Assembly (NCBI RefSeq): GCF_050320075.1
Contig: NZ_CP190018.1
Reading direction: 5' to 3' (one strand)
Origin: Escherichia coli
GTDB taxonomy: Bacteria > Pseudomonadota > Gammaproteobacteria > Enterobacterales > Enterobacteriaceae
DNA length: 64,000 bases
Shown here: one piece after another, positions 1,789 to 13,496 of the stretch
How positions within the stretch are numbered: the stretch's first letter is position 1
How the letters are laid out: each line of letters starts with the position of its first letter
The notes under the pieces: model-generated
The model's input: only the letters and a program-made list of their open reading frames with translations
Told to the model about the DNA's origin: nothing
Databases searched by the model: none
Program-made: the position numbers and the translations under genes

Positions 1789-2346
1789 TTACGCTTCCTG
1801 CTCTTTCTTGATACGTTGCACCGTCTGTGTGCTGACACTGAAATCTTTTGCTACGCTCCGAATTGATCCACCATTCGCGAGAGCGGCAGCAATTCCTGCT
1901 CGATCAATTGCTTTTCCATTACCACGTTTTGCTATACGTCCAGCGGCCTTAGCTGCGGCGATCCCTTCACGTTGACGCTCAAGCATCATTTCACGTTCCA
2001 TTTGTGCCACTGCTGCAAGCACTGTGAGCATCATATTCCCTGCGGGAGAGTTCTTCCCTGTCTTAAAGTCTTCTTTATGGAAATGCACAGACACGCCGCG
2101 CTCTGTTAATTGCTCAACCGTTGCCAGTAGGTCGGCTGTATTACGGCAAAGTCGATCAATGCTGTGAACATGCAAAACATCACCTTCCCGCACATAGTTC
2201 ATCATTGCCTCAAACTGTGGGCGCTGGGTATTTTTGCCTGACGCTTTATCTTCAAAGACTTTATCAAGAGTTACTCCAGCTAATTGACGGTCTGTGTTTT
2301 GTTGGACAGTCGATACCCTAATGTATCCAATATTAGCCATTTTCAT
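1789..2346 (-). CDS. serine recombinase (resolvase / DNA invertase family)
   Basis: N-terminal IGYIRVSTVQQ catalytic-serine motif, 185 aa, C-terminal helix-turn-helix-like tail; typical small serine recombinase architecture. Confidence 0.85.
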   Translation of the reverse strand: MKMANIGYIRVSTVQQNTDRQLAGVTLDKVFEDKASGKNTQRPQFEAMMNYVREGDVLHVHSIDRLCRNTADLLATVEQLTERGVSVHFHKEDFKTGKNSPAGNMMLTVLAAVAQMEREMMLERQREGIAAAKAAGRIAKRGNGKAIDRAGIAAALANGGSIRSVAKDFSVSTQTVQRIKKEQEA

Positions 2347-3265
2347 TTTCCTTCTGTGTTGATTTGTGTGTAGTGATTATTGATCGTGTTGATTAGGTGT
2401 GTAAAGGACTTTTTTCACTACGAAATTCGAAGGTTTTTAGTGTGGTGATTTAGCCTGCTTTATCACTACACGTCTTGCATGAGAATCATGTAGTTACATT
2501 TTGGTAAAATTAGCAAGCTATTAAATAGTGTGTTTATTTTGAAAAAATAATTTTTTGTTGCATTAAAGGAAACTTGTTCAATAAATGATAGAACGTTTAT
2601 TGAGCAACAATTTTGCAGTGATGCGCTATATGCCGCATTACATAAGGCTTTGCTGATGATAATGTAAAAGTGAAGAAAGCTAACATTGCTCTTTTAAGCT
2701 ACTTTTCATTGAATTTTTAGTATGGAATTACATAGGGATAAACTATGAATATTCTATGATTTACACGAGATATTCTTGCTGTTTAATTCCGGCTTTGGAG
2801 ATCAGGCATTCGCAAGAATACGCTAACGCGTTGCCTGAAAAGCCATTGCACATAATAGAGGTGAGCGTATAGCGAACTATCAATGTGATCATTGCACGAA
2901 TGATAATGAGTGGATATAGATTCTATATATCGTTAGATTGTAGTTTGATAGTTAATGTGTAATGTAGATTGTATGAGCGTATAGCGAATGTTAGTTAGAT
3001 CAACAACAAACTAACCTTTAAATCTCTTTTATCTTCTCATAGATATGGCTATGCGTAGCAACCGAAGGTTAGCCAATCATCTCTATGCAGCCGTAAGGCT
3101 GTTTTGCATGTAATAGTTGTTTGTTGTTGTTAGACAGTTACCAATTTATAGATCAGAGATAGATGTGAGCGTTGAGCGATACACTAATCATAACAACATC
3201 TTCTTACTTTTTAGTTAGTTGTTAGTAGGTTATTGTTATGCGCGCTATTAGCGCATGTATAAAGG

Positions 3266-3371
3266 TATCATTTTTATCTAAAGGGCTTTAGACATTTTTG
3301 ATACCTTTTTCATCTCTAAAAAAGTGTAATTTTTATCTAAAGGGGCTTTAGACATTTTTTACACCTTTTTC
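3266..3371. repeat. two direct copies of a ~45 bp repeat, each with palindromic core TCTAAAGG(G)CTTTAGA
   Basis: Copy 1 ~3266..3311 and copy 2 ~3327..3371 are near-identical; cores at 3277..3292 and 3337..3353; extra TCTAAAG half-sites near 3412 and 3487. Operator- or iteron-like. Confidence 0.6.
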
Positions 3372-3515
3372 TGTGCAAGACACTTACCAGTGTGCACAAT
3401 ACTTATGCTTTTCTAAAGCCGGGAATTTTTAAGTTTGATTGATCAATTGTTAACTTTAAAAGTTACTTTTAACAATCACTTAGACGATCTAAAGCCGCAA
3501 TTAACATAATATAAG

Positions 3516-3545
3516 TTGACATGCAAGCACTTTTTACCGTATAGT
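3516..3545 (+). promoter_or_regulatory. sigma70-like promoter candidate (TTGACA, 18 nt spacer, TATAGT)
   Basis: Perfect -35 hexamer at 3516..3521, -10 TATAGT at 3540..3545; transcription would start at the 23 bp tandem repeat. Confidence 0.4.
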
Positions 3546-3553
3546 GCGGGTTT

Positions 3554-3604
3554 CCTACCTACCCAGGAAATGAGTTCCTACCTACCCAGGAAATGAGTTC
3601 CTAC
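3554..3604. repeat. 23 bp tandem repeat CCTACCTACCCAGGAAATGAGTT, about 2.2 copies
   Basis: Exact copies at 3554..3576 and 3577..3599, partial third copy (CCTAC) following. Confidence 0.75.
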
Positions 3605-4556
3605 AATACTATAATTAAACTACAATTAAACTATCTTTTATAAATTCTTTTATCTTTTAAAGAATAATTATAGGGATACCCGTTAGGGAGTCTTCGACTA
3701 TCCCTTAATCTATTGGCATTCGCCAGAACCTTGCACAAGTTAGACTGATGCTTGTCATAACAGATAGTTTTTGTTTTTTGTTAGTAGTTAGCTGATCTAT
3801 GTTCGCTTTCCGCTCACAACGAATATGTAATCTACTATGTGCAAATAGCCTACGGCTTGCGTATGGCTAATAGTCTTGCGCTGTGCGCAGAACGATAATT
3901 AACTAACTACCATCTAACGATTGAAATTTACTTGTGCAATAACCTGAGCATAAGCGAATGGTTGTTAGTGTCTATGCGCTGTGCGCTTCAATAGTTCCAT
4001 TGATGAGGCTTACGCCAATCTAACGATCATCAATCTATTTAAGAGAAAATCTATTGTGCAATACTCTGACGAGTGCAATAACCTTGTGTGCTACGCGTTA
4101 GCGATGTTAGCACATAGACACAGACAACAACCAACAACAAACAAAAAAGAAAGAATGGTTTTAGTAGTTGAAGGTTAAATAAGTTTCTACCGCTTAAATC
4201 AAGCCGTAGGCGAGCTAAACGTATATAAGGTAGGGAAACACTTAGCGGTAATAGATTAGCTCGTTATAGAGCTTCTGAGGAGCTTTACAGGTATTTTATA
4301 AGATGTCTGAAATCAGAGTTTATCTATCCACCATCTTTCCATCATCTGATAAATCAAAAATAAGCCCCTTAAATAAGCCTCTGACGAGATAAACAACCTC
4401 TACATAAGGGAATGTATTGTTTTTATCAAAACCCCCGTCAGAGTGCGATTGAGAGCGTTTTAGACAACAGGGAAGAATTGTACCAGAGTAGGCAGCACAA
4501 AAAGCTAAGAAAAATTATAAGAAATTGAAAATGATCAAGTTTTTTATAAAAGAGGG

Positions 4557-4585
4557 TTGACAAAGCCGCCGTTATGTAGTATTGT
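4557..4585 (+). promoter_or_regulatory. sigma70-like promoter candidate (TTGACA, 17 nt spacer, TATTGT) for the plus-strand operon
   Basis: -35 at 4557..4562, -10 at 4580..4585; first ORF of a co-directional gene string starts ~115 nt downstream. Confidence 0.5.
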
Positions 4586-4701
4586 AAGTAGGGAGGGGAG
4601 AAACATCTCTCTCCATCTAAATAATCAAATCACAGAACACTGCACTTTGAGCCGTCAGGCTGCAAGGTGTGTTTTTCTTTTATCTAAATAAGGAGTTTTT
4701 T

Positions 4702-4884
4702 ATGAAATGGTATACACCGGAACACGTCGTAGAGGCATTTAAAAAAGGTGAGCTAACACGACATCAAGTAAGGATGAACAGGAACACAGCGCGGCGCTGT
4801 GGTTATCCAGAGCGTGAAAAATGCTTTGACGATGCACTAAAAATTATTGATGAACTGCGTAAGGCAGAAGCAGAGAAAGAATAA
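4702..4884 (+). CDS. hypothetical small protein (60 aa)
   Basis: AGGAG 6 nt upstream of ATG 4702 (MKWYTPEHV...); first gene after promoter 4557. Confidence 0.5.
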   Translation: MKWYTPEHVVEAFKKGELTRHQVRMNRNTARRCGYPEREKCFDDALKIIDELRKAEAEKE

Positions 4885-4907: not shown

Positions 4908-5084
4908 ATGAATATTAATTTTGATTCTGCAACTTATAACGCGTTGTTAAATCGTGCAAAGGCAGAAGGGAAATCAATTCCAAAACTTGTTAATGAATTA
5001 CTAATTACAGTCCTTACAAAGGAGGAACTAAATGAACCAAAACACCAAAACAATTGCCGAAGCAAAAGCGCAATGCCTCAATAA
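4908..5084 (+). CDS. ribbon-helix-helix-like small DNA-binding protein (58 aa), not in ORF track
   Basis: GGAGAAGGAGA before ATG 4908; MNINFDSATYNALLNRAKAEGKSIPKLVNELL resembles CopG/Arc-type RHH N-terminus; 3-prime end overlaps the next gene by 53 nt in another frame. Confidence 0.45.
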   Translation: MNINFDSATYNALLNRAKAEGKSIPKLVNELLITVLTKEELNEPKHQNNCRSKSAMPQ

Positions 5085-5697
5085 GAAAGATAGTAAACAA
5101 ACATATGTAGTAGTTGAACAATGGCTGAAGATGTTTAAAAAGTGGTTCTCACCGTCAGGTAAGGAATACACCGCGACACTTCCAGCCGTTGAAATCTACA
5201 GTTACGTAGCTGGGTTCAATGAACAAGGGCAAGAATGTTACGCCAATCAAAAAACATTAGCTAATATTGGAATGGTTAGTGATCGTCAGGTGCGTAATAT
5301 TATAAATATGTTTATTGATATGGGTGTTCTTTCTGTAGAGGCACGGGACGGGCAAACATCACTCTATAAAGCATTACCCTTTACAGATGCACACATCACA
5401 CCACCGGAAGACGTAAAAACCTCTGTAAACGTAGAACAGCCTGCACCTGAAACACAGGAACCGTTAGAAGCGACACACTCTATTGAGCAGGAAACACAGG
5501 CAGAAATCACGGAACAATCTGATCTTTTTACATGGCTTATTTCCATAGACAGCCAAAAGCCTATGCAAGAAGAAACAGAAAATTTTATAAAACGTGCACT
5601 GACCTCGAAGAGGATAATTCTTGAAGATGATGCTTTTAATGCACTGATGATAGCCCTGAGAAAAGAAAGTGAAATCTATGACTCAATACCATTTTAA
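5032..5697 (+). CDS. hypothetical protein with winged-helix-like N-terminus and acidic C-terminus; possible replication initiator or organiser
   Basis: Strong AAGGAGGA before ATG 5032; segment ANQKTLANIGMVSDRQVRNIINMFIDMGVLS resembles winged-helix DNA-binding domains of phage/plasmid Rep-type proteins. Assignment is by resemblance only. Confidence 0.45.
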   Translation: MNQNTKTIAEAKAQCLNKKDSKQTYVVVEQWLKMFKKWFSPSGKEYTATLPAVEIYSYVAGFNEQGQECYANQKTLANIGMVSDRQVRNIINMFIDMGVLSVEARDGQTSLYKALPFTDAHITPPEDVKTSVNVEQPAPETQEPLEATHSIEQETQAEITEQSDLFTWLISIDSQKPMQEETENFIKRALTSKRIILEDDAFNALMIALRKESEIYDSIPF

Positions 5698-7243: not shown

Positions 7244-7452
7244 TGTCAAAAACTAAACGTGTGCGCCTTCTGGCGCTCACAGAAGAAGGGAAAGCGGGTA
7301 ATTGTTTCACAGTAGGTAAAGTGTATACCGGCTTACTCGACACTTACACCCGCCTGATGCACGTAACCGATGATAACGGTAACGATCAAACAATCGTTTT
7401 AGATGGTAATTGCGTATTTGGTGAGTGGGAACTGACAACCGAAAAAAGTTGA
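7243..7452 (+). CDS. hypothetical protein (69 aa)
   Basis: ORF track; start overlaps upstream stop (TAATG). Confidence 0.5.
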   Translation: MSKTKRVRLLALTEEGKAGNCFTVGKVYTGLLDTYTRLMHVTDDNGNDQTIVLDGNCVFGEWELTTEKS

Positions 7453-7471
7453 AAATAATTGCATTTACCTA

Positions 7472-7500
7472 TTGACTTTTACTAACAGAAATGTTAGAAT
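7472..7500 (+). promoter_or_regulatory. near-consensus sigma70 promoter (TTGACT, 17 nt spacer, TAGAAT)
   Basis: -35 at 7472..7477, -10 at 7495..7500; followed by ~820 nt without any ORF of 60 codons or more on the plus strand. Confidence 0.55.
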
Positions 7501-7506
7501 AATAAA

Positions 7507-8291
7507 TGTTGGGTTTGGAATCGAAAATAGGTGTTAGCTGGCGTTAATCCTTCTCCCGATTCTAATCCTACACGAAAGCGGGGTAGACCTCAAGGGGTCG
7601 CGCCCTATCTAACCTATCCCGCTTTCCCTTTACAGTGATTTTTTAGAAATTGTTTCCCTCGTTAATAGTTTCATTTTATTTTCCTTATTGCTTTATCAAA
7701 ATTGTGTCTTAAGAATGCAGGGGCTACGGATTTGGCCCCTCATCTTTTTAACCAACTGCGAAGCATGAAACACTTTCTAAAAACACTGTTTACAGTGTCT
7801 ATAAACCCCGTATAAACAAATAACGGTGTATATCTGTTTCTTGACAACAGTTTTCTACTAAGCTTAAAGCTGAATATGTTTTTGTTTGTTGGTGTTTATT
7901 AAGGTGCCAATCTTAGAACGCGAAAGCGTGGATGATCCCCGAAATCATCTCGGCACCGCCTCCTATTAAAATGAGAATCCAAAAGGTTTGAAAGTTAATA
8001 GGTGATTCCTGAAAGTCTGATCGATGCATCCACATTGTGAAAGACAGCGATTAGCCGTCGCACGAATAACAGGTTTATAGATTCCTCTCCAAAGGGGGCG
8101 ACCTCCTAAGCGCCTACTCCCTGTAAGCCTGTTATTCACCCCTCAAGGGTATATAACAATAAGCAATCTTATTCTTATATGTCCTCCTCTTTAAGTTCAT
8201 ATAAACTGCGATTTAGTAACACTCTATAACATCCTTCAAATGTTGTATTCATAAAGCCGGAAGCTTTCCCCTTCCGGTTTTATTTTTATCA
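7507..8291 (+). ncRNA. candidate structured leader or noncoding RNA region
   Basis: ORF-poor; stem-loops at 7575..7626 (GAAAGCGGG / CCCGCTTTC), 7719..7749 (AGGGGC, 10 nt loop, GCCCCT then T-run) and 8065..8136 (AATAACAGG / CCTGTTATT); ends at terminator 8257..8291. Boundaries and function are inferred. Confidence 0.3.
8257..8291 (+). terminator. rho-independent terminator-like hairpin (CCGGAAG, loop, CTTCCGG, then T-run)
   Basis: Inverted repeat with following TTTTATTTTTAT, just upstream of the 8331 ORF. Confidence 0.5.
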
Positions 8292-8330
8292 GCACTAAAC
8301 AAGACTGTTAGGAATAAAGGTAAAGCAATA

Positions 8331-8546
8331 ATGCAAAATCTCATTCTAAAGAATGGTAACGAAGAATTGGTTATCACTGATGAAACATTCAATGCTACGG
8401 CTTATATGCTGGGGATCACTCCCACAGAATTGAAAAAACATTGTGATAAGCTTTTTAAGTCTGCTGATGAACAGAAACCTACTATGCAGGATCTGATTAA
8501 AGCAAAAGCAGAACAAATCAAACAATCCAAAAAAGGAAACTATTAA
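8331..8546 (+). CDS. hypothetical protein (71 aa)
   Basis: ORF track; immediately precedes the capsid-like gene pair. Confidence 0.5.
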   Translation: MQNLILKNGNEELVITDETFNATAYMLGITPTELKKHCDKLFKSADEQKPTMQDLIKAKAEQIKQSKKGNY

Positions 8547-8938: not shown

Positions 8939-9967
8939 ATGATTATTGGTAATGAATCCGTCGATCTGGCTCCGCTGTTTAGTCTGCACGACTCTCGCAA
9001 CTTCCTGTTAACTTCTCTCGACTTTACTGATCCGGTAGGTGTGAGTTCTCATAAAGTGGCTGTTAGCCAACTGGTGGAAACTAACGAATCTCTGTTCAAC
9101 AAAGAAACCTCTCGTTTCTCTTCTGAACATAACGTGACTAAACGTGAACAGGGTAAAGAATTTTTAGTAGAGATCCCCTACTTCCTGCGTGAAGATATGA
9201 TTAAGCCGCAAGACGTGCAAGGCAAACGTAAACCAGGCGCTACCGTTGAAGAAACTCTGACAGATATCTACGCGGAATATGTTGCTAAGCACCACATTGC
9301 TTTCCAGCGTACTAAAGAAAGCGTGCTGGCTGCTTCCCTGTTCTCTGGTCGCACTTACACCCCTAAAACTGATGATGTGCTGATCCAGTGGGGCGATCTG
9401 TTTAGTGTTGTTCCGATGACTGCAACCATCGACGCATCAAGCACCACGCCTTCTATGGTGTTCCAGCAATTCGATCAGATGCATACAGACGTTATTACTA
9501 AAGCACAAAGCCAGGCGGCTGCTGTAGAACGTATCGTTGTATTCTGTAAACCTGCTGCTTTCAACGCTATCCGTTACAGTGCTGGCATGGTTAACGCGTT
9601 CCAGTATGCAAGCCCTACCGATGACGCAAACATCGTTTATAGCGTGCGCTCCCTGCTGCCAGGTGTGACTACCTTCACTATTCCTGGGACTAACATCGAT
9701 ATCGTTAAAGTTACTGATCCGCTGCTGCTGGCTCATATGACTTCTGATGCGGTTGCTGTTCCGAAGTTCGCTAAAGGCTCTAACGTCTATCAGAACATTT
9801 TCAGCGCTCCTTCTTCAACGTTCGACCTGCTGAATTCTGGCGCGGCTGAATATTACAGCTATGCGTTTAGCCCAGCACGTAACGACGCTGTAAACGTAGT
9901 TACTGAGAATAGCCAGATGGTTGTAAACCACGGCGTAGGCTTCACTGTACAGATCACAGTAGCGTAA
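8939..9967 (+). CDS. putative major capsid-like protein (342 aa)
   Basis: Size and position (after a ~120 aa protein) resemble a lambda D/E-type head gene pair; AAGGAA RBS; codons strongly optimised (CGT, CTG, TCT, AAC, GAA) unlike neighbouring genes. Not confirmed by homology. Confidence 0.45.
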   Translation: MIIGNESVDLAPLFSLHDSRNFLLTSLDFTDPVGVSSHKVAVSQLVETNESLFNKETSRFSSEHNVTKREQGKEFLVEIPYFLREDMIKPQDVQGKRKPGATVEETLTDIYAEYVAKHHIAFQRTKESVLAASLFSGRTYTPKTDDVLIQWGDLFSVVPMTATIDASSTTPSMVFQQFDQMHTDVITKAQSQAAAVERIVVFCKPAAFNAIRYSAGMVNAFQYASPTDDANIVYSVRSLLPGVTTFTIPGTNIDIVKVTDPLLLAHMTSDAVAVPKFAKGSNVYQNIFSAPSSTFDLLNSGAAEYYSYAFSPARNDAVNVVTENSQMVVNHGVGFTVQITVA

Positions 9968-10330: not shown

Positions 10331-12172
10331 ATGGATTTAAACATCTCAACCTTAACAAACAAGGTTGTATTTAAAGTTGATTTTGCATCATTACAGAAAG
10401 CAAGGGACGCAGGGAAGAAATTTCAGAAAGAAATGGAAAACCTAACCAATCCAACATTGAAAGGGAAGAAGGCTAAACGAGCTATAGACGAGGCTCATGA
10501 TCTGGTAAAGGCTCGTAAAGCTGCACAGGCTAAAACTGATGCCAAAGCGTCAGACAAGCAAGCTCAAACCGATAAGAAGAACGCTGATAAGGTGGCAAAG
10601 GCAGAAGCTAAAGCGAAGGCTAAAGCCGCTATAGCTGCCGATAAACAGATCCGCGCTAAAGCGACAATAGCAGAGAAAGCAGAGATTAAGCGCCAGCAAG
10701 CTTTCAGACAGCTTGAAGGGATTAAGAAAGGGCGTATGGGCGACGGTATGGACTCCGCCCAATACTACAAAACGTTGCAATACATCAAAGCACAAACGGC
10801 AGCGTATGAGAAAGGCGCTATTAGTCAGGCTAAGATGAATCACCTGATCCGTGATCGTATCACGTTAGAACGCCGTGCGGCTGCTGTAAAAGCTCGCCAG
10901 GTGGCGGCTGATGGCGGTAAATATCCACATATGGCTAAACAGCTTAAAGGCGGTCATATAGGCGGTGGTGTAGGTGCAATGGTGGGCGGTGCCGCTCTCA
11001 CTGCTGCCACTCTCGGCGGTGCTGCGATATTCAATACCGTAACCGATCAGGCAAGCAAGATCACAGACACTAACCGCAAGGCAAAGGCTGTCAACGTAAA
11101 CACTAACGCCCTGTTAGCACTTAATCAGTACGGCTTAGAACACGGTGTCGATAGTTCCGTAGACCAACGTCAAGACAACCTTAAAGACGTTCAAGAGCGT
11201 TTAGGTGAATCCGTAGGGAATACCAAATGGGACGCTAAGAAAGGTCGCTGGGCTGGCGGTAATGGTGCCGTCGATAACATCCTTAATAAATATGGTTGGA
11301 GTCCTGAACAGATTAAAGGTTTCCAGACTGATCCATTAGGTTTCCTGGGCGCTGTAGTGAAAGAAGGAGAACGCCGTGGACTCTCTGATCAGGAGCAGGG
11401 TCACATCCTTGAAGACCTTGGAAATGATTTACAATATTTCCGTGGTGCTTTCAGTCGTAACGGTGAAGAGCTAAATAAAACCATCGTTAAGATGCAAAAA
11501 GCCAATGCCACCTATGCGCAAGCGGATCTTGACGCTGCTGAACGTCTGCAAGCTGTACAGGCTAATATGAATATGGCCTGGGAAGGTAGTAAGAAAGCTA
11601 TCATGACGGGATTCGGTGAAGAGTTCGACGCTCAGGCTGGTGAAGAGTGGGCGCAAATGTTGAAAGATCTCAATCCTCTGTTTAAAGAACTTGGAAGCTC
11701 AACGGCTGAAATGATGAGCGCCTTTGCTGGTGCTGTATCGTGGCTTACTGCTGCATACCAGAATATAAATCCAGAGAACAAACATGAAAACCTTGATTCG
11801 TCCGGTATGTATTATAAGGATTCGTTTGTAGGCGGCATGGTTGATTGGGGTCGTAGTGCTTTAGGCTTATCGCCTATCCCTGGCACGGAAGACAAGCCAA
11901 CGACTGGCGGAACTGCAATTCAGAACTATTCAAGCCCGTCCGATAACGTGCAATCCCTGAAAGAGAACGTTAGCCGTGATCTGAACACTACCCCATCTAT
12001 GACGTATGCGCCAAGCATTGTCGTAAACGTGCCAGAAAGTAAGGTTGATGTGAATATCGCTCCTGATGGTAGTCAGCTTGGATCATACCTCGATTACAAA
12101 GTGGGAAGTATCCAACAAGATTTTGAACGTAGTTTCACGTTGGCGGCTCTGTCTGGGCAAGCACCAAGTTAA
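10331..12172 (+). CDS. large coiled-coil / glycine-zipper protein (613 aa); tape-measure-, scaffold- or DNA-pilot-like
   Basis: Lys/Ala-rich coiled-coil stretch (KAKAKAAIAADKQIRAKATIAEKAEIKRQQ), then glycine-zipper hydrophobic segment GGHIGGGVGAMVGGAALTAATLGGAAIF. Function inferred from composition only. Confidence 0.5.
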   Translation: MDLNISTLTNKVVFKVDFASLQKARDAGKKFQKEMENLTNPTLKGKKAKRAIDEAHDLVKARKAAQAKTDAKASDKQAQTDKKNADKVAKAEAKAKAKAAIAADKQIRAKATIAEKAEIKRQQAFRQLEGIKKGRMGDGMDSAQYYKTLQYIKAQTAAYEKGAISQAKMNHLIRDRITLERRAAAVKARQVAADGGKYPHMAKQLKGGHIGGGVGAMVGGAALTAATLGGAAIFNTVTDQASKITDTNRKAKAVNVNTNALLALNQYGLEHGVDSSVDQRQDNLKDVQERLGESVGNTKWDAKKGRWAGGNGAVDNILNKYGWSPEQIKGFQTDPLGFLGAVVKEGERRGLSDQEQGHILEDLGNDLQYFRGAFSRNGEELNKTIVKMQKANATYAQADLDAAERLQAVQANMNMAWEGSKKAIMTGFGEEFDAQAGEEWAQMLKDLNPLFKELGSSTAEMMSAFAGAVSWLTAAYQNINPENKHENLDSSGMYYKDSFVGGMVDWGRSALGLSPIPGTEDKPTTGGTAIQNYSSPSDNVQSLKENVSRDLNTTPSMTYAPSIVVNVPESKVDVNIAPDGSQLGSYLDYKVGSIQQDFERSFTLAALSGQAPS

Positions 12173-12279: not shown

Positions 12280-13441
12280 TTAAGCCTTAAAATCAATATT
12301 TAATTCATATCTTACTAATTCTACATATTCAGCTAATTCTGGAATGCTTGCCCCTTGTGAGTAGGTGCGAAAGGCTTCTGTTTTAGCTCTCTGCTCTGTA
12401 TGTCCGGTAATGGCACCGATCCGCTGTTCAGGCACTCCGGCACGATCAAGACAAGTGATAAACATCCCGCGCAAGCTGTGAAAGCATTGTCTATTTGTAG
12501 CGATTGGCAAGACGCTACGACGTAAACGTGAGAACGCTTGAGAATAGAACGGGCCTTTCTTACCGTCGATTCTTTTTACTTTGTTCGAGTGAGGGAACAA
12601 ATATTCACCATAATTATGATTTAAATATTCATCGACAATAATCGATAGTCTCGAATGTATCGGAACGTGCCTGATCCCTGCTTTAGTCTTACTTTTGCTG
12701 ATATAAAAACAGCGTATTCCTTCCACAGTTACAACCTCTGACTTTTTCAGACTTGCCAGTTCGTCTAATCTGCATCCTGAAAACAAGCCCATTAAAATAA
12801 TATTTCTGATCTCCGGCTCCGCTGCATCAAGTAGCTTTTGCATTTGTTCAGGTGTAAACGGTTGATAACTCTCGATTGTGCGACGTGCTTCGAGATTATG
12901 ACCGTGAAAAGGGTTACTGTCTGGTATTCCGTCATAACGGCGTTTAGCAAATTCATAGAGCGATCCTAAGCATGTAAGCCAGTTTTGACGAGATTGATCG
13001 GCTGCTCCTCGTTGCTTCTGGTCATCTAAGAATACTGTTACAAGCCGTCTGCCTATTTTCTCAATATGAATATCATCTTTCTGAATGCTTTGTAAAAATA
13101 GCTCAACGGCCCTTGCTGATTTCTGTAGTGTTGAGTATGAACGACGCTCTCTGTAGCATTCGGCGTATTCGTCACGTATTAAGCATAGGGAAGGCGATGC
13201 ATAACCGCGTTTTACGGCTCTTTGCGTGTTTTTATTGGCCCTTGCCTCTGAATGTAAGGATTCAATAGCTTGTTGTAACCTCCTTTCGGGGTTATCAGGA
13301 TTATGTTTCCGCTTTAGTTCCTCCCATTCTAATAATAGATGGTTTCTGAATCTTCTCGCCTCATTCAGATCTCGTGTAGATGTGCTTTTTCTCCACAACT
13401 TGTAAGGGTAAAGATGACGTAAGTATTTAGGAACAAAAATC
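12280..13441 (-). pseudogene. tyrosine recombinase / integrase with 5-prime end disrupted by IS1
   Basis: C-terminal catalytic motifs of tyrosine recombinases (R in GCRLDEL, HSLRGMF, GHTEQ...FRTYSQG). The ORF's first 5 codons (to 13455) lie inside the IS1 inverted repeat, so the native start and promoter are missing. Confidence 0.8.
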
Positions 13442-13496
13442 GGTGATGCTGCCAACTTACTGATTTAGTGTATGATGGTGTTTTTGAGGTGCTCCA

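Follow-up and report, generated by a model that had tools for sequence, protein, structure and literature searches.

What is a 2.2-kb, AT-rich stretch without genes doing in an Escherichia coli chromosome? The question is raised by positions 2347–4556 of the 64,000-nucleotide stretch of DNA that we analysed (the window; contig NZ_CP190018.1 of RefSeq assembly GCF_050320075.1), which lie between a serine recombinase gene and a rightward operon and contain 65% A+T vs 53% for the window. An earlier, sequence-only reading had seen no credible open reading frame (ORF) here and had described four repeat families, lettered (a) to (d) below, as possible parts of a replication origin with iterons and operators, of a packaging site or of regulatory RNA genes. 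The longest ORF in any frame is indeed 65 amino acids (aa) long, within the range given by shuffles of the same sequence (72 ± 16 aa), none of the 25 best E. coli matches carries a RefSeq annotation in the region, and no tRNA or tmRNA genes were found in it. All four repeat families are present above chance and recur in homologous elements, and they belong to at least three separate modules rather than to one system. The region is made up of block A, a variable middle, an AT-rich stretch, block B, block C and the operon promoter. We conclude that 2347–4556 is the non-coding control region of an integrated phage satellite of ~11 kb, and that it most probably holds the satellite replication origin, the core of which would lie at 3552–3671 and would be served by the 221-aa protein of the rightward operon. 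The features concerned are the following.

3552–3604 (no strand): type W iterons, a half-site TTCCT (3552–3556) and two full dyads AGGAAATGAGTTCCT (3565–3579 and 3588–3602)
3603–3671 (no strand): AT-rich stretch of 69 bp, 87% A+T, putative DNA-unwinding element
5032–5697 (+ strand): 221-aa winged helix-turn-helix (wHTH) protein, putative initiator, with a type-specific N-terminal and a conserved C-terminal domain

The W dyads are 23 bp apart, centre to centre, and the 23-bp tandem repeat of the sequence-only reading is real (2.3 copies at 3552–3604 with 100% matches; an 18-mer of it occurs twice vs 0.01 expected), its symmetric unit being better read as the AGGAAATGAGTTCCT dyad. About 90 related loci were gathered from RefSeq genomes, IMG/VR and metagenomes (labelled L001 etc.), and they follow a common plan: a recombinase or other gene, 1.3–2.9 kb without ORFs, a 60-aa ORF, a ribbon-helix-helix (RHH) gene, a wHTH gene and a capsid gene, the last seen wherever the locus extends that far. 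Each locus bears 2–5 dyad-symmetric units with ~23-bp spacing just before an AT-rich stretch, and the sequence of the unit varies, such that at least 5–6 array types are found among the loci; in every type examined, an AT-rich stretch of 70–100 bp directly follows the cognate array. The wHTH proteins of these loci have a common C-terminal domain and unrelated N-terminal domains; at least five N-domain types (W, E, Q, S and K) were told apart, each of them with an iteron sequence of its own. In 24 of 24 isolate-derived loci, the array closest to the AT-rich stretch agrees with the N-domain type of the protein. Overall, this holds for 32 of 35 non-redundant loci, a number reached by none of 100,000 label permutations (maximum 20); two apparent mismatches were resolved when the cognate array was located after a partial copy of block B. 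The same array/protein pair occurs with either of the two versions of block B, so the pairing has been kept through recombination in the ~1 kb between the array and the gene. The proposal that the 221-aa protein is the partner of the origin fits this co-variation, while the idea of an origin with iterons stands for 3552–3671 only, the rest of the repeats lying in other modules. The RHH protein was rejected as the determinant of iteron specificity: L004 and L006 have identical RHH proteins and different iterons.

The 221-aa protein itself weakly matches the PHROG families "replication initiation protein", "O-like" and "DnaD-like loader" (E 7e-6 to 4e-3), and in a protein search its homologues turned up in ~150-kb phages. 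In four phages of the Stephanstirmvirinae, two satellite-type DNA-binding domains, 79–90% identical to satellite proteins, are followed within one protein by a MUG113/T5orf172-like, nuclease-like C-terminus.

L029, 6001–6999: fusion gene of phage muut, domains K+W
L096, 1414–2400: fusion gene of phage Mt1B1_P17, domains E+W
L097, 1057–2160: fusion gene of phage inny, domains S+W
L098: fusion gene of phage BI-EHEC, domains E+W, in an unannotated stretch

The second domain is 83–90% identical to W-type satellite proteins, and residues 30–143 of the 221-aa protein show 75% identity to muut gp094, inny gp184, Mt1B1_P17 gp053 and the BI-EHEC ORF. The phage fusion matches the PHROG initiator families more strongly (E 5e-17) than the 221-aa protein does. 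The most plausible reason for the diversity of the iteron types is an arms race in which phage nucleases copy the DNA-binding domain of the satellite.

Most probably, then, the 221-aa protein would bind the two-and-a-half dyad iterons through its N-terminal winged helix, which is of the matching type, the duplex would open at the adjoining 87% A+T stretch, and the conserved C-terminal domain of the protein would recruit host or helper replication proteins. A number of points weigh against such an origin. The loci are mutually related, so that the counts of co-varying pairs are not counts of independent events, and three metagenome contigs (L039, L042 and L044) break the pairing. The window has two full dyads only, vs 3–5 in other types, and its iterons fall between about +5 and +60 relative to a strong promoter, a position that suits operators. 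Pfam reports HTH_36 only (best E 2e-7 among 7 members), and the PGAP name for relatives of the protein is "transcriptional regulator", so the arrays could be operators. No DnaA boxes were found in the region, and neither a helicase loader nor a primase was recognised among the element proteins by PHROG. Finally, about 80% of the 2.2 kb has a role that the origin does not explain.

Many elements carry more than one array. One to four extra non-cognate arrays, some of them with an AT-rich stretch of their own, lie upstream of the cognate array between blocks A and B in L008, L010, L013, L015, L026, L068 and L079; these could be left over from module swaps, or could act as spare origins or decoys. 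A sixth iteron type, GGTCGGTCACGATGACCGGGG, accompanies a variant Q-like protein in the metagenome contig L042, where the array lies between blocks A and B, and the same type forms an upstream non-cognate array in L040, L049 and L060.

How, then, did the remaining repeats come to lie beside the core? The left 3.5 kb of the window is shared with a sister satellite of E. coli G3X16-2 (L030, 3072–6277). Since window 61–3561 matches L030 at 96% identity and the two then diverge, the non-coding region is, on this alignment, a recombinant composite. In L030 a 494-aa DEAD/DEAH-type helicase replaces the wHTH protein and block B is missing, such that L030 is a second type of replication module in the satellite family; the helicase has PHROG matches only of unknown function, plus a weak C-terminal match to HTH. 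The part of the region shared with L030 contains the following features.

2767–3561 (no strand): sister-satellite module
2862–2876, 2974–2988 and 3166–3180 (+ strand): repeat (c), three copies of TGAGCG-N3-AGCGA, candidate binding sites of the sister module
3258–3311 and 3317–3371 (no strand): repeat (a), tandem ~60-bp duplication, operator-like, upstream of the 3516 promoter
3516–3545 (+ strand): strong sigma-70-like promoter, TTGACA-18-TATAGT, 11/12

The sister module includes repeats (a) and (c) as well as the TTGACA promoter, because all of them lie within the stretch shared with L030. Of 5426 E. coli genomes, 75 carry the 2767–3561 module, which folds no better than its shuffles (z −1.3 and −1.6); it would be a regulatory or origin module brought in by recombination from a helicase-using sister element. 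The three TGAGCG copies of the sequence-only reading (TGAGCGTATAGCGAA at 2862 and 2974, TGAGCGTTGAGCGAT at 3166) are confirmed and joined by a fourth, inverted one at 3803–3816, inside block B. The window holds six matches to this motif vs 1.3 expected, a number reached by none of 100 shuffles, and all three direct copies are kept in L030, the first one as TGAGCATATAGCGAA. Each unit of repeat (a) is a 48-bp palindrome around TCTAAAGG(G)CTTTAGA, with 23-nt arms at 3261–3283 and 3286–3308, and further TCTAAAG half-sites lie at 3411–3420 and 3487–3496; with one mismatch allowed, six of the eight window matches to ATCTAAAGSC cluster in 3276–3496. The direct repeats with a palindrome and extra half-sites are thus as first described, except that their length is ~60 bp and not ~45 bp. 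The unit has two copies in the window and a single one in L002 and L030, and the matches in O26:H11 strains span 2156 vs 2210 bp, being ~54 bp short, which fits the loss of one unit. Hence, loci differ in how many copies of this operator-like unit they have, with probably a single copy in O26:H11 strains. The palindromes precede the 3516 promoter by ~25 to 240 bp and resemble operators, while the sister module may use the TGAGCG units as binding sites; a protein partner was identified in this window for neither of them.

The 3516 promoter is kept in L030, ahead of the operon of that element, and its −35 box is lost in L002, L019 and L040 although the same W iterons are present there. Judged by these loci, the promoter goes with the sister module and is not conserved as a part of the origin. 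The TTGACA box and the 23-bp repeat that it had been said to feed both exist, but they do not form a designed unit, because the −35 box is lost in other loci with the same iterons.

The left end of the region contains the following features.

2376–2405 (− strand): recombinase promoter-like site, TTTACA-18-AATAAT, 10/12, reading away from the region; also found in L003 and L011
2565–2766 (no strand): block A, the most widely conserved non-coding piece
2637–2643, 2727–2733 and 2759–2766: ATTACAY boxes of block A

Parts of 2347–4556 were found in 711 of 5426 complete E. coli genomes, most of these matches coming from block A, and the full length in only 38. Block A was aligned in 23 and 53 variants. 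In 3 of the 53, the box equivalent to 2633–2647 has GCATTACACAAGG replaced by its reverse complement CCTTGTGTAATG, i.e., ~14 bp inverted in place between short inverted flanks GCC...GGC. Because of this inversion, the alignment points to a protein site at the DNA level rather than to RNA. A small RNA in block A was considered on the basis of apparent G-U-mediated covariation in one hairpin and was rejected, being undercut by RNAalifold (no stable consensus) and by the box inversion. Likewise rejected was an invertible switch operated by the neighbouring Hin/Gin-like recombinase: eight relatives were aligned with the window, every long alignment is co-linear, and the ~14-bp box is the only inversion seen.

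To the right of the AT-rich stretch lies the most structured part of the region.

3672–4320 (no strand): block B version 1, a conserved, strongly folding hairpin array of ~650 bp
3770–3802 / 4120–4152: long inverted repeat of block B
3803–3816: inverted TGAGCG motif
about 3830–3921, 3922–4027 and 4028–4130: three ~100-nt units
4086–4118: hairpin
4267–4287: terminator-like hairpin

The motifs of repeat (d), namely TGCGCTGTGCGC at 3877 and 3975 and TGTGCAATA(A/C) at 3933, 4055 and 4072, were found as described, and all of them are within block B. Version 1 folds better than shuffles with z −4.4 on the + strand and −5.2 on the − strand; version 2, represented by L011, reaches −6.7 and −8.15. Both versions have long-range closing helices, with no alignable similarity between them except the short motifs TTCCGCTCACAMCGAA and TGCGCTGTGCGC. 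Among 20 variants of version 1, compensatory change is seen at five predicted pairs, several others vary by way of G-U, and the hairpin at 4086–4118 exists as two alleles that differ at three paired positions and both pair. Whole ~100-nt units were gained and lost by recombination between short repeats. Version 2 is conserved among its relatives as strongly as coding genes. The strong folding, the conservation and the compensatory changes make selection for single-strand pairing in block B likely.

The stretch 3672–4556, which always follows the AT-rich stretch, would most likely cooperate with the origin, either through single-stranded hairpins or in the form of a transcript. We tentatively consider it possible that block B and its counterpart of unrelated sequence in other elements are a new, satellite-specific class of large structured nucleic acid, either a non-coding RNA (ncRNA) of ~400–700 nt or single-strand initiation (ssi) hairpins capturing the replication machinery of the helper, with the upstream non-cognate iterons as decoys or spares in the arms race with phage nucleases directed at the origin. 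If true, ssi hairpins would serve a satellite without a primase or helicase of its own. A search for further types of block B in IMG/VR and metagenomes returned only the same two versions.

The folding of block B also bears on an alternative to the origin, namely that the region serves mainly to produce one or several large structured ncRNAs, from 3672–4320 and perhaps 2780–3260, for regulation or interference with the helper; for instance, TGAGCG-N3-AGCGA loops could pair in antisense with TTCGCT-N3-CGCTCA at 3801–3815. Besides the folding, the closing helices and the coding-like conservation of version 2, such RNAs would account for the GNRA- or UUCG-type loops and for compensatory changes counted in 5–7 pairs, and in the window a strong promoter reads into block B, which has its terminator-like hairpin at 4267–4287. 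Abundant non-coding RNAs are, moreover, produced by the PLE satellites of Vibrio cholerae (PMC7567579). On the other hand, no conserved sigma-70 promoter feeding block B was found in the relatives L003 and L011, and the G-U vs A-C counts, being similar on both strands, favour neither strand as the transcribed one. In Rfam, searched with gathering as well as permissive thresholds, there was no credible match to 2200–4750 at E ≤ 10, the two best matches scoring about half their gathering thresholds, and none at E ≤ 1 to L011 5995–7900. The gain and loss of whole ~100-nt units is unusual for one ornate RNA, 2780–3260 folds no better than chance, and the block A box is inverted in place. We therefore regard an ncRNA as the main product of the region as unlikely.

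The next alternative starts from the same dyads as the origin. The tandem dyads could be operators, and the 221-aa wHTH protein a type-specific repressor or activator, i.e., an immunity determinant, controlling transcription through the region. The names given by Pfam (an HTH domain only) and, for several relatives, by PGAP agree with such a role, as does the location of the window dyads just 3′ of TTGACA-18-TATAGT; co-variation would be expected as well, as repressor and operator also co-vary in phage immunity regions. This alternative is at variance with the loss of the −35 box in L002, L019 and L040 and with the lack of any sigma-70 site near the arrays in L003 and L011, whereas an AT-rich stretch always adjoins the arrays and the PHROG matches are to replication initiators. 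In addition, the conserved C-terminal domain and the phage nuclease fusions parallel the RepA/Odn system of PLE, which has been tested. Operators thus appear an improbable explanation of the arrays.

A packaging role is still less probable. In this case the conserved blocks would be a pac- or cos-like signal for the terminase of the helper, with the ~100-bp units as sites for the small terminase subunit, and repeated units with conserved motifs are typical of packaging sites. A helper-compatible signal is needed somewhere: no PHROG family match for a terminase, protease or portal was obtained among the ten element proteins scanned, apart from which the flanking recombinase has one weak match to a terminase small subunit (E 0.0065), and satellites of this kind are described as being without terminase genes (Barth et al. 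2023, PMC10448857). However, a DNA search of phage records with the ORF-free region showed no similarity at E ≤ 0.1, the phage matches of block B version 2 are confined to a 44–63-nt motif in T5-like phages and not Stephanstirmvirinae, and the compensatory changes in the hairpins point to single-stranded structure and not to protein sites in duplex DNA. Decayed coding sequence or neutral junk, which the mosaic nature of the element and the variable length of the region (1.3 to 2.9 kb) might suggest, can practically be dismissed: blocks A, B and C are conserved at least as well as coding genes across loci at different integration sites, the gap runs of the type-2 block B in relatives are mostly 1–2 nt, ORF length is no more than in shuffles, and the repeats exceed chance.

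What kind of satellite uses the proposed origin can be seen from the genes around it.

1789–2346 (− strand): invertase-like serine recombinase gene, left neighbour of the ORF-free region
3′ of the region (+ strand): rightward operon with a 60-aa protein, an RHH protein and the 221-aa winged-helix protein
8939–9967: major capsid gene, PHROG "major head protein" match
10331–12172: tape-measure-like gene, PHROG "tape measure" match
12280–13455: tyrosine integrase gene, a feature of small integrated satellites beside a tRNA gene or other att site

The capsid protein and the head proteins of Stephanstirmvirinae have ~25% identity. Barth, Dunham and Seed (2023) gave a bioinformatic description of 224 E. 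coli satellites and of three of the four phage odn homologues (PMC10448857). Their satellites are of the same family, being tRNA-proximal and having a major capsid protein, decoration-like and tape-measure-like proteins, a tyrosine integrase, a modular RepA_N-like protein and, in some cases, a serine recombinase. The N-domain of the window Rep protein is homologous to a domain of the phage odn homologues; by this homology, by its integrase and by its capsid and tape-measure-like genes, with no terminase, protease or portal match among the element proteins scanned, the window satellite belongs to the Stephanstirmvirinae-linked family described there. These authors call the satellite Rep domain RepA_N on the basis of HHsearch, and make no mention of iterons, an origin or the non-coding region (PMC10448857). 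According to the legend of their Figure 8, the second domain of the phage proteins is without a detectable satellite cognate (PMC10448857); by our protein comparisons, it does have one, in the W type, the window satellite included.

The closest known parallel is provided by PLE. Its origin lies in a ~3-kb non-coding region and its RepA_N domain co-varies with the origin (Barth et al. 2020, 2021; PMC7567579, PMC8263062), and the ICP1 nuclease Odn binds and cuts the PLE iterons using a copied RepA_N domain (PMC8263062). PLE and the window satellite have in common a long stretch without ORFs, flanked by a leftward gene cluster and by rightward operons, of which the (here putative) iteron origin is only a part, and an initiator with a swappable N-terminal DNA-binding domain, co-varying with the origin, and a conserved C-terminal domain. 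In both cases the helper phage has a copied N-domain fused to a T5orf172-type nuclease (T5orf172-like here). The differences concern the partners (V. cholerae and ICP1 vs E. coli and Stephanstirmvirinae), the domain (HTH_36 and not RepA_N in the window protein, by Pfam hmmscan), the number of types (two in PLE, at least 5–6 in the E. coli satellites) and the non-cognate iteron and AT-rich modules that E. coli satellites, unlike PLE, often stack upstream. The RepA/Odn system of PLE was studied experimentally, while the E. coli satellite origin is proposed here from sequence. A satellite iteron origin with a modular initiator under the pressure of a phage nuclease was known before, and the window would be a further, detailed case.

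Two other origins resemble the proposed one in part. The lambda ori, which lies inside the O gene, has dyad-symmetric iterons with a spacing of about two turns beside an AT-rich stretch; the type-specific N-terminal winged helix of lambda O binds them and its C-terminal part recruits the replisome. The window is similar in the layout of the iterons and in the putative roles of the N- and C-terminal domains, and one of its PHROG matches is "O-like". It differs in that ~1.4 kb would separate the origin from the gene downstream of it, in that a P-like loader was not found, and in the weakness of the O-like match (E 1e-4 to 4e-3). The oriV of IncQ plasmids (RSF1010) comprises iterons, an AT-rich segment and the ssiA/ssiB hairpins, two hairpins of ~40 nt that are recognised by the plasmid primase. 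The order is the same at 3552–4320, where iterons and an AT-rich stretch are followed by conserved hairpins formable on either strand. Block B is, however, ~650 bp long with many hairpins, and no primase is known for the element, so that we take this resemblance as a lead only.

If the origin reading is true, it provides a mapped origin and a table of iteron and initiator types for Stephanstirmvirinae satellites known only from sequence. The arms race with origin-directed nucleases would become testable in a tractable host, the table predicting which phage would cut which satellite, and all four phage proteins should recognise the W-type origin of the window. As regards annotation, the reading explains an unannotated gap of 1.3–2.9 kb in about one in eight complete E. 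coli genomes.

The right end of the region and the operon leader contain the following features.

4321–4556 (no strand): block C, conserved, upstream of the operon promoter
4557–4585 (+ strand): operon promoter, TTGACA-17-TATTGT
4642–4670, then a U-tract at 4672–4681 (+ strand): terminator-like leader hairpin just before the first ORF, z −2.97

The leader hairpin is kept in all aligned loci with changed arms. Because a conserved terminator-like hairpin sits between the promoter and the first ORF, the alignment suggests that the operon is under attenuation or antitermination control. Block C of relatives contains a motif of 44–63 nt (...GTTAGAACGCGTTTTAGAGCGTTTTAG), seen in L011 (7551–7626) and weaker in the window (about 4419–4463). 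About 80 phage records, most of them of T5-like phages, have this motif at 78–91% identity in an intergenic stretch without annotation, for instance Klebsiella phage KPN4 (L099, 1201–1244), and it lies near a genome end in several of the records listed.

The window is a piece of E. coli chromosome in which OmrA/B, STnc490 and three tRNA-Met genes were found, and strain YZLc1-3 matches it at 100% identity. Relatives of the satellite often lie beside tRNA-Thr or tRNA-Gly, while O157 Sakai does not carry the element at thrW. A scan of the genome collection with the capsid protein added only one locus, and a DNA search of the plasmid collection with the region returned two E. coli records, a 166-kb plasmid and a 4.9-Mb record that looks like a chromosome. 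W iterons were not found in any Escherichia phage. The window satellite has a second ORF-poor gap of ~880 bp (7452–8331), which separates its early genes from the capsid module. Its immediate upstream neighbour in strain YZLc1-3 is a P4-like satellite (L001, 1–17000); the latter encodes an Icd-like protein, a DUF927 primase and ProQ/FinO, together with three large hypothetical genes resembling defence cargo. The P4-like and window satellites are therefore arranged in tandem within the ETT2 region.

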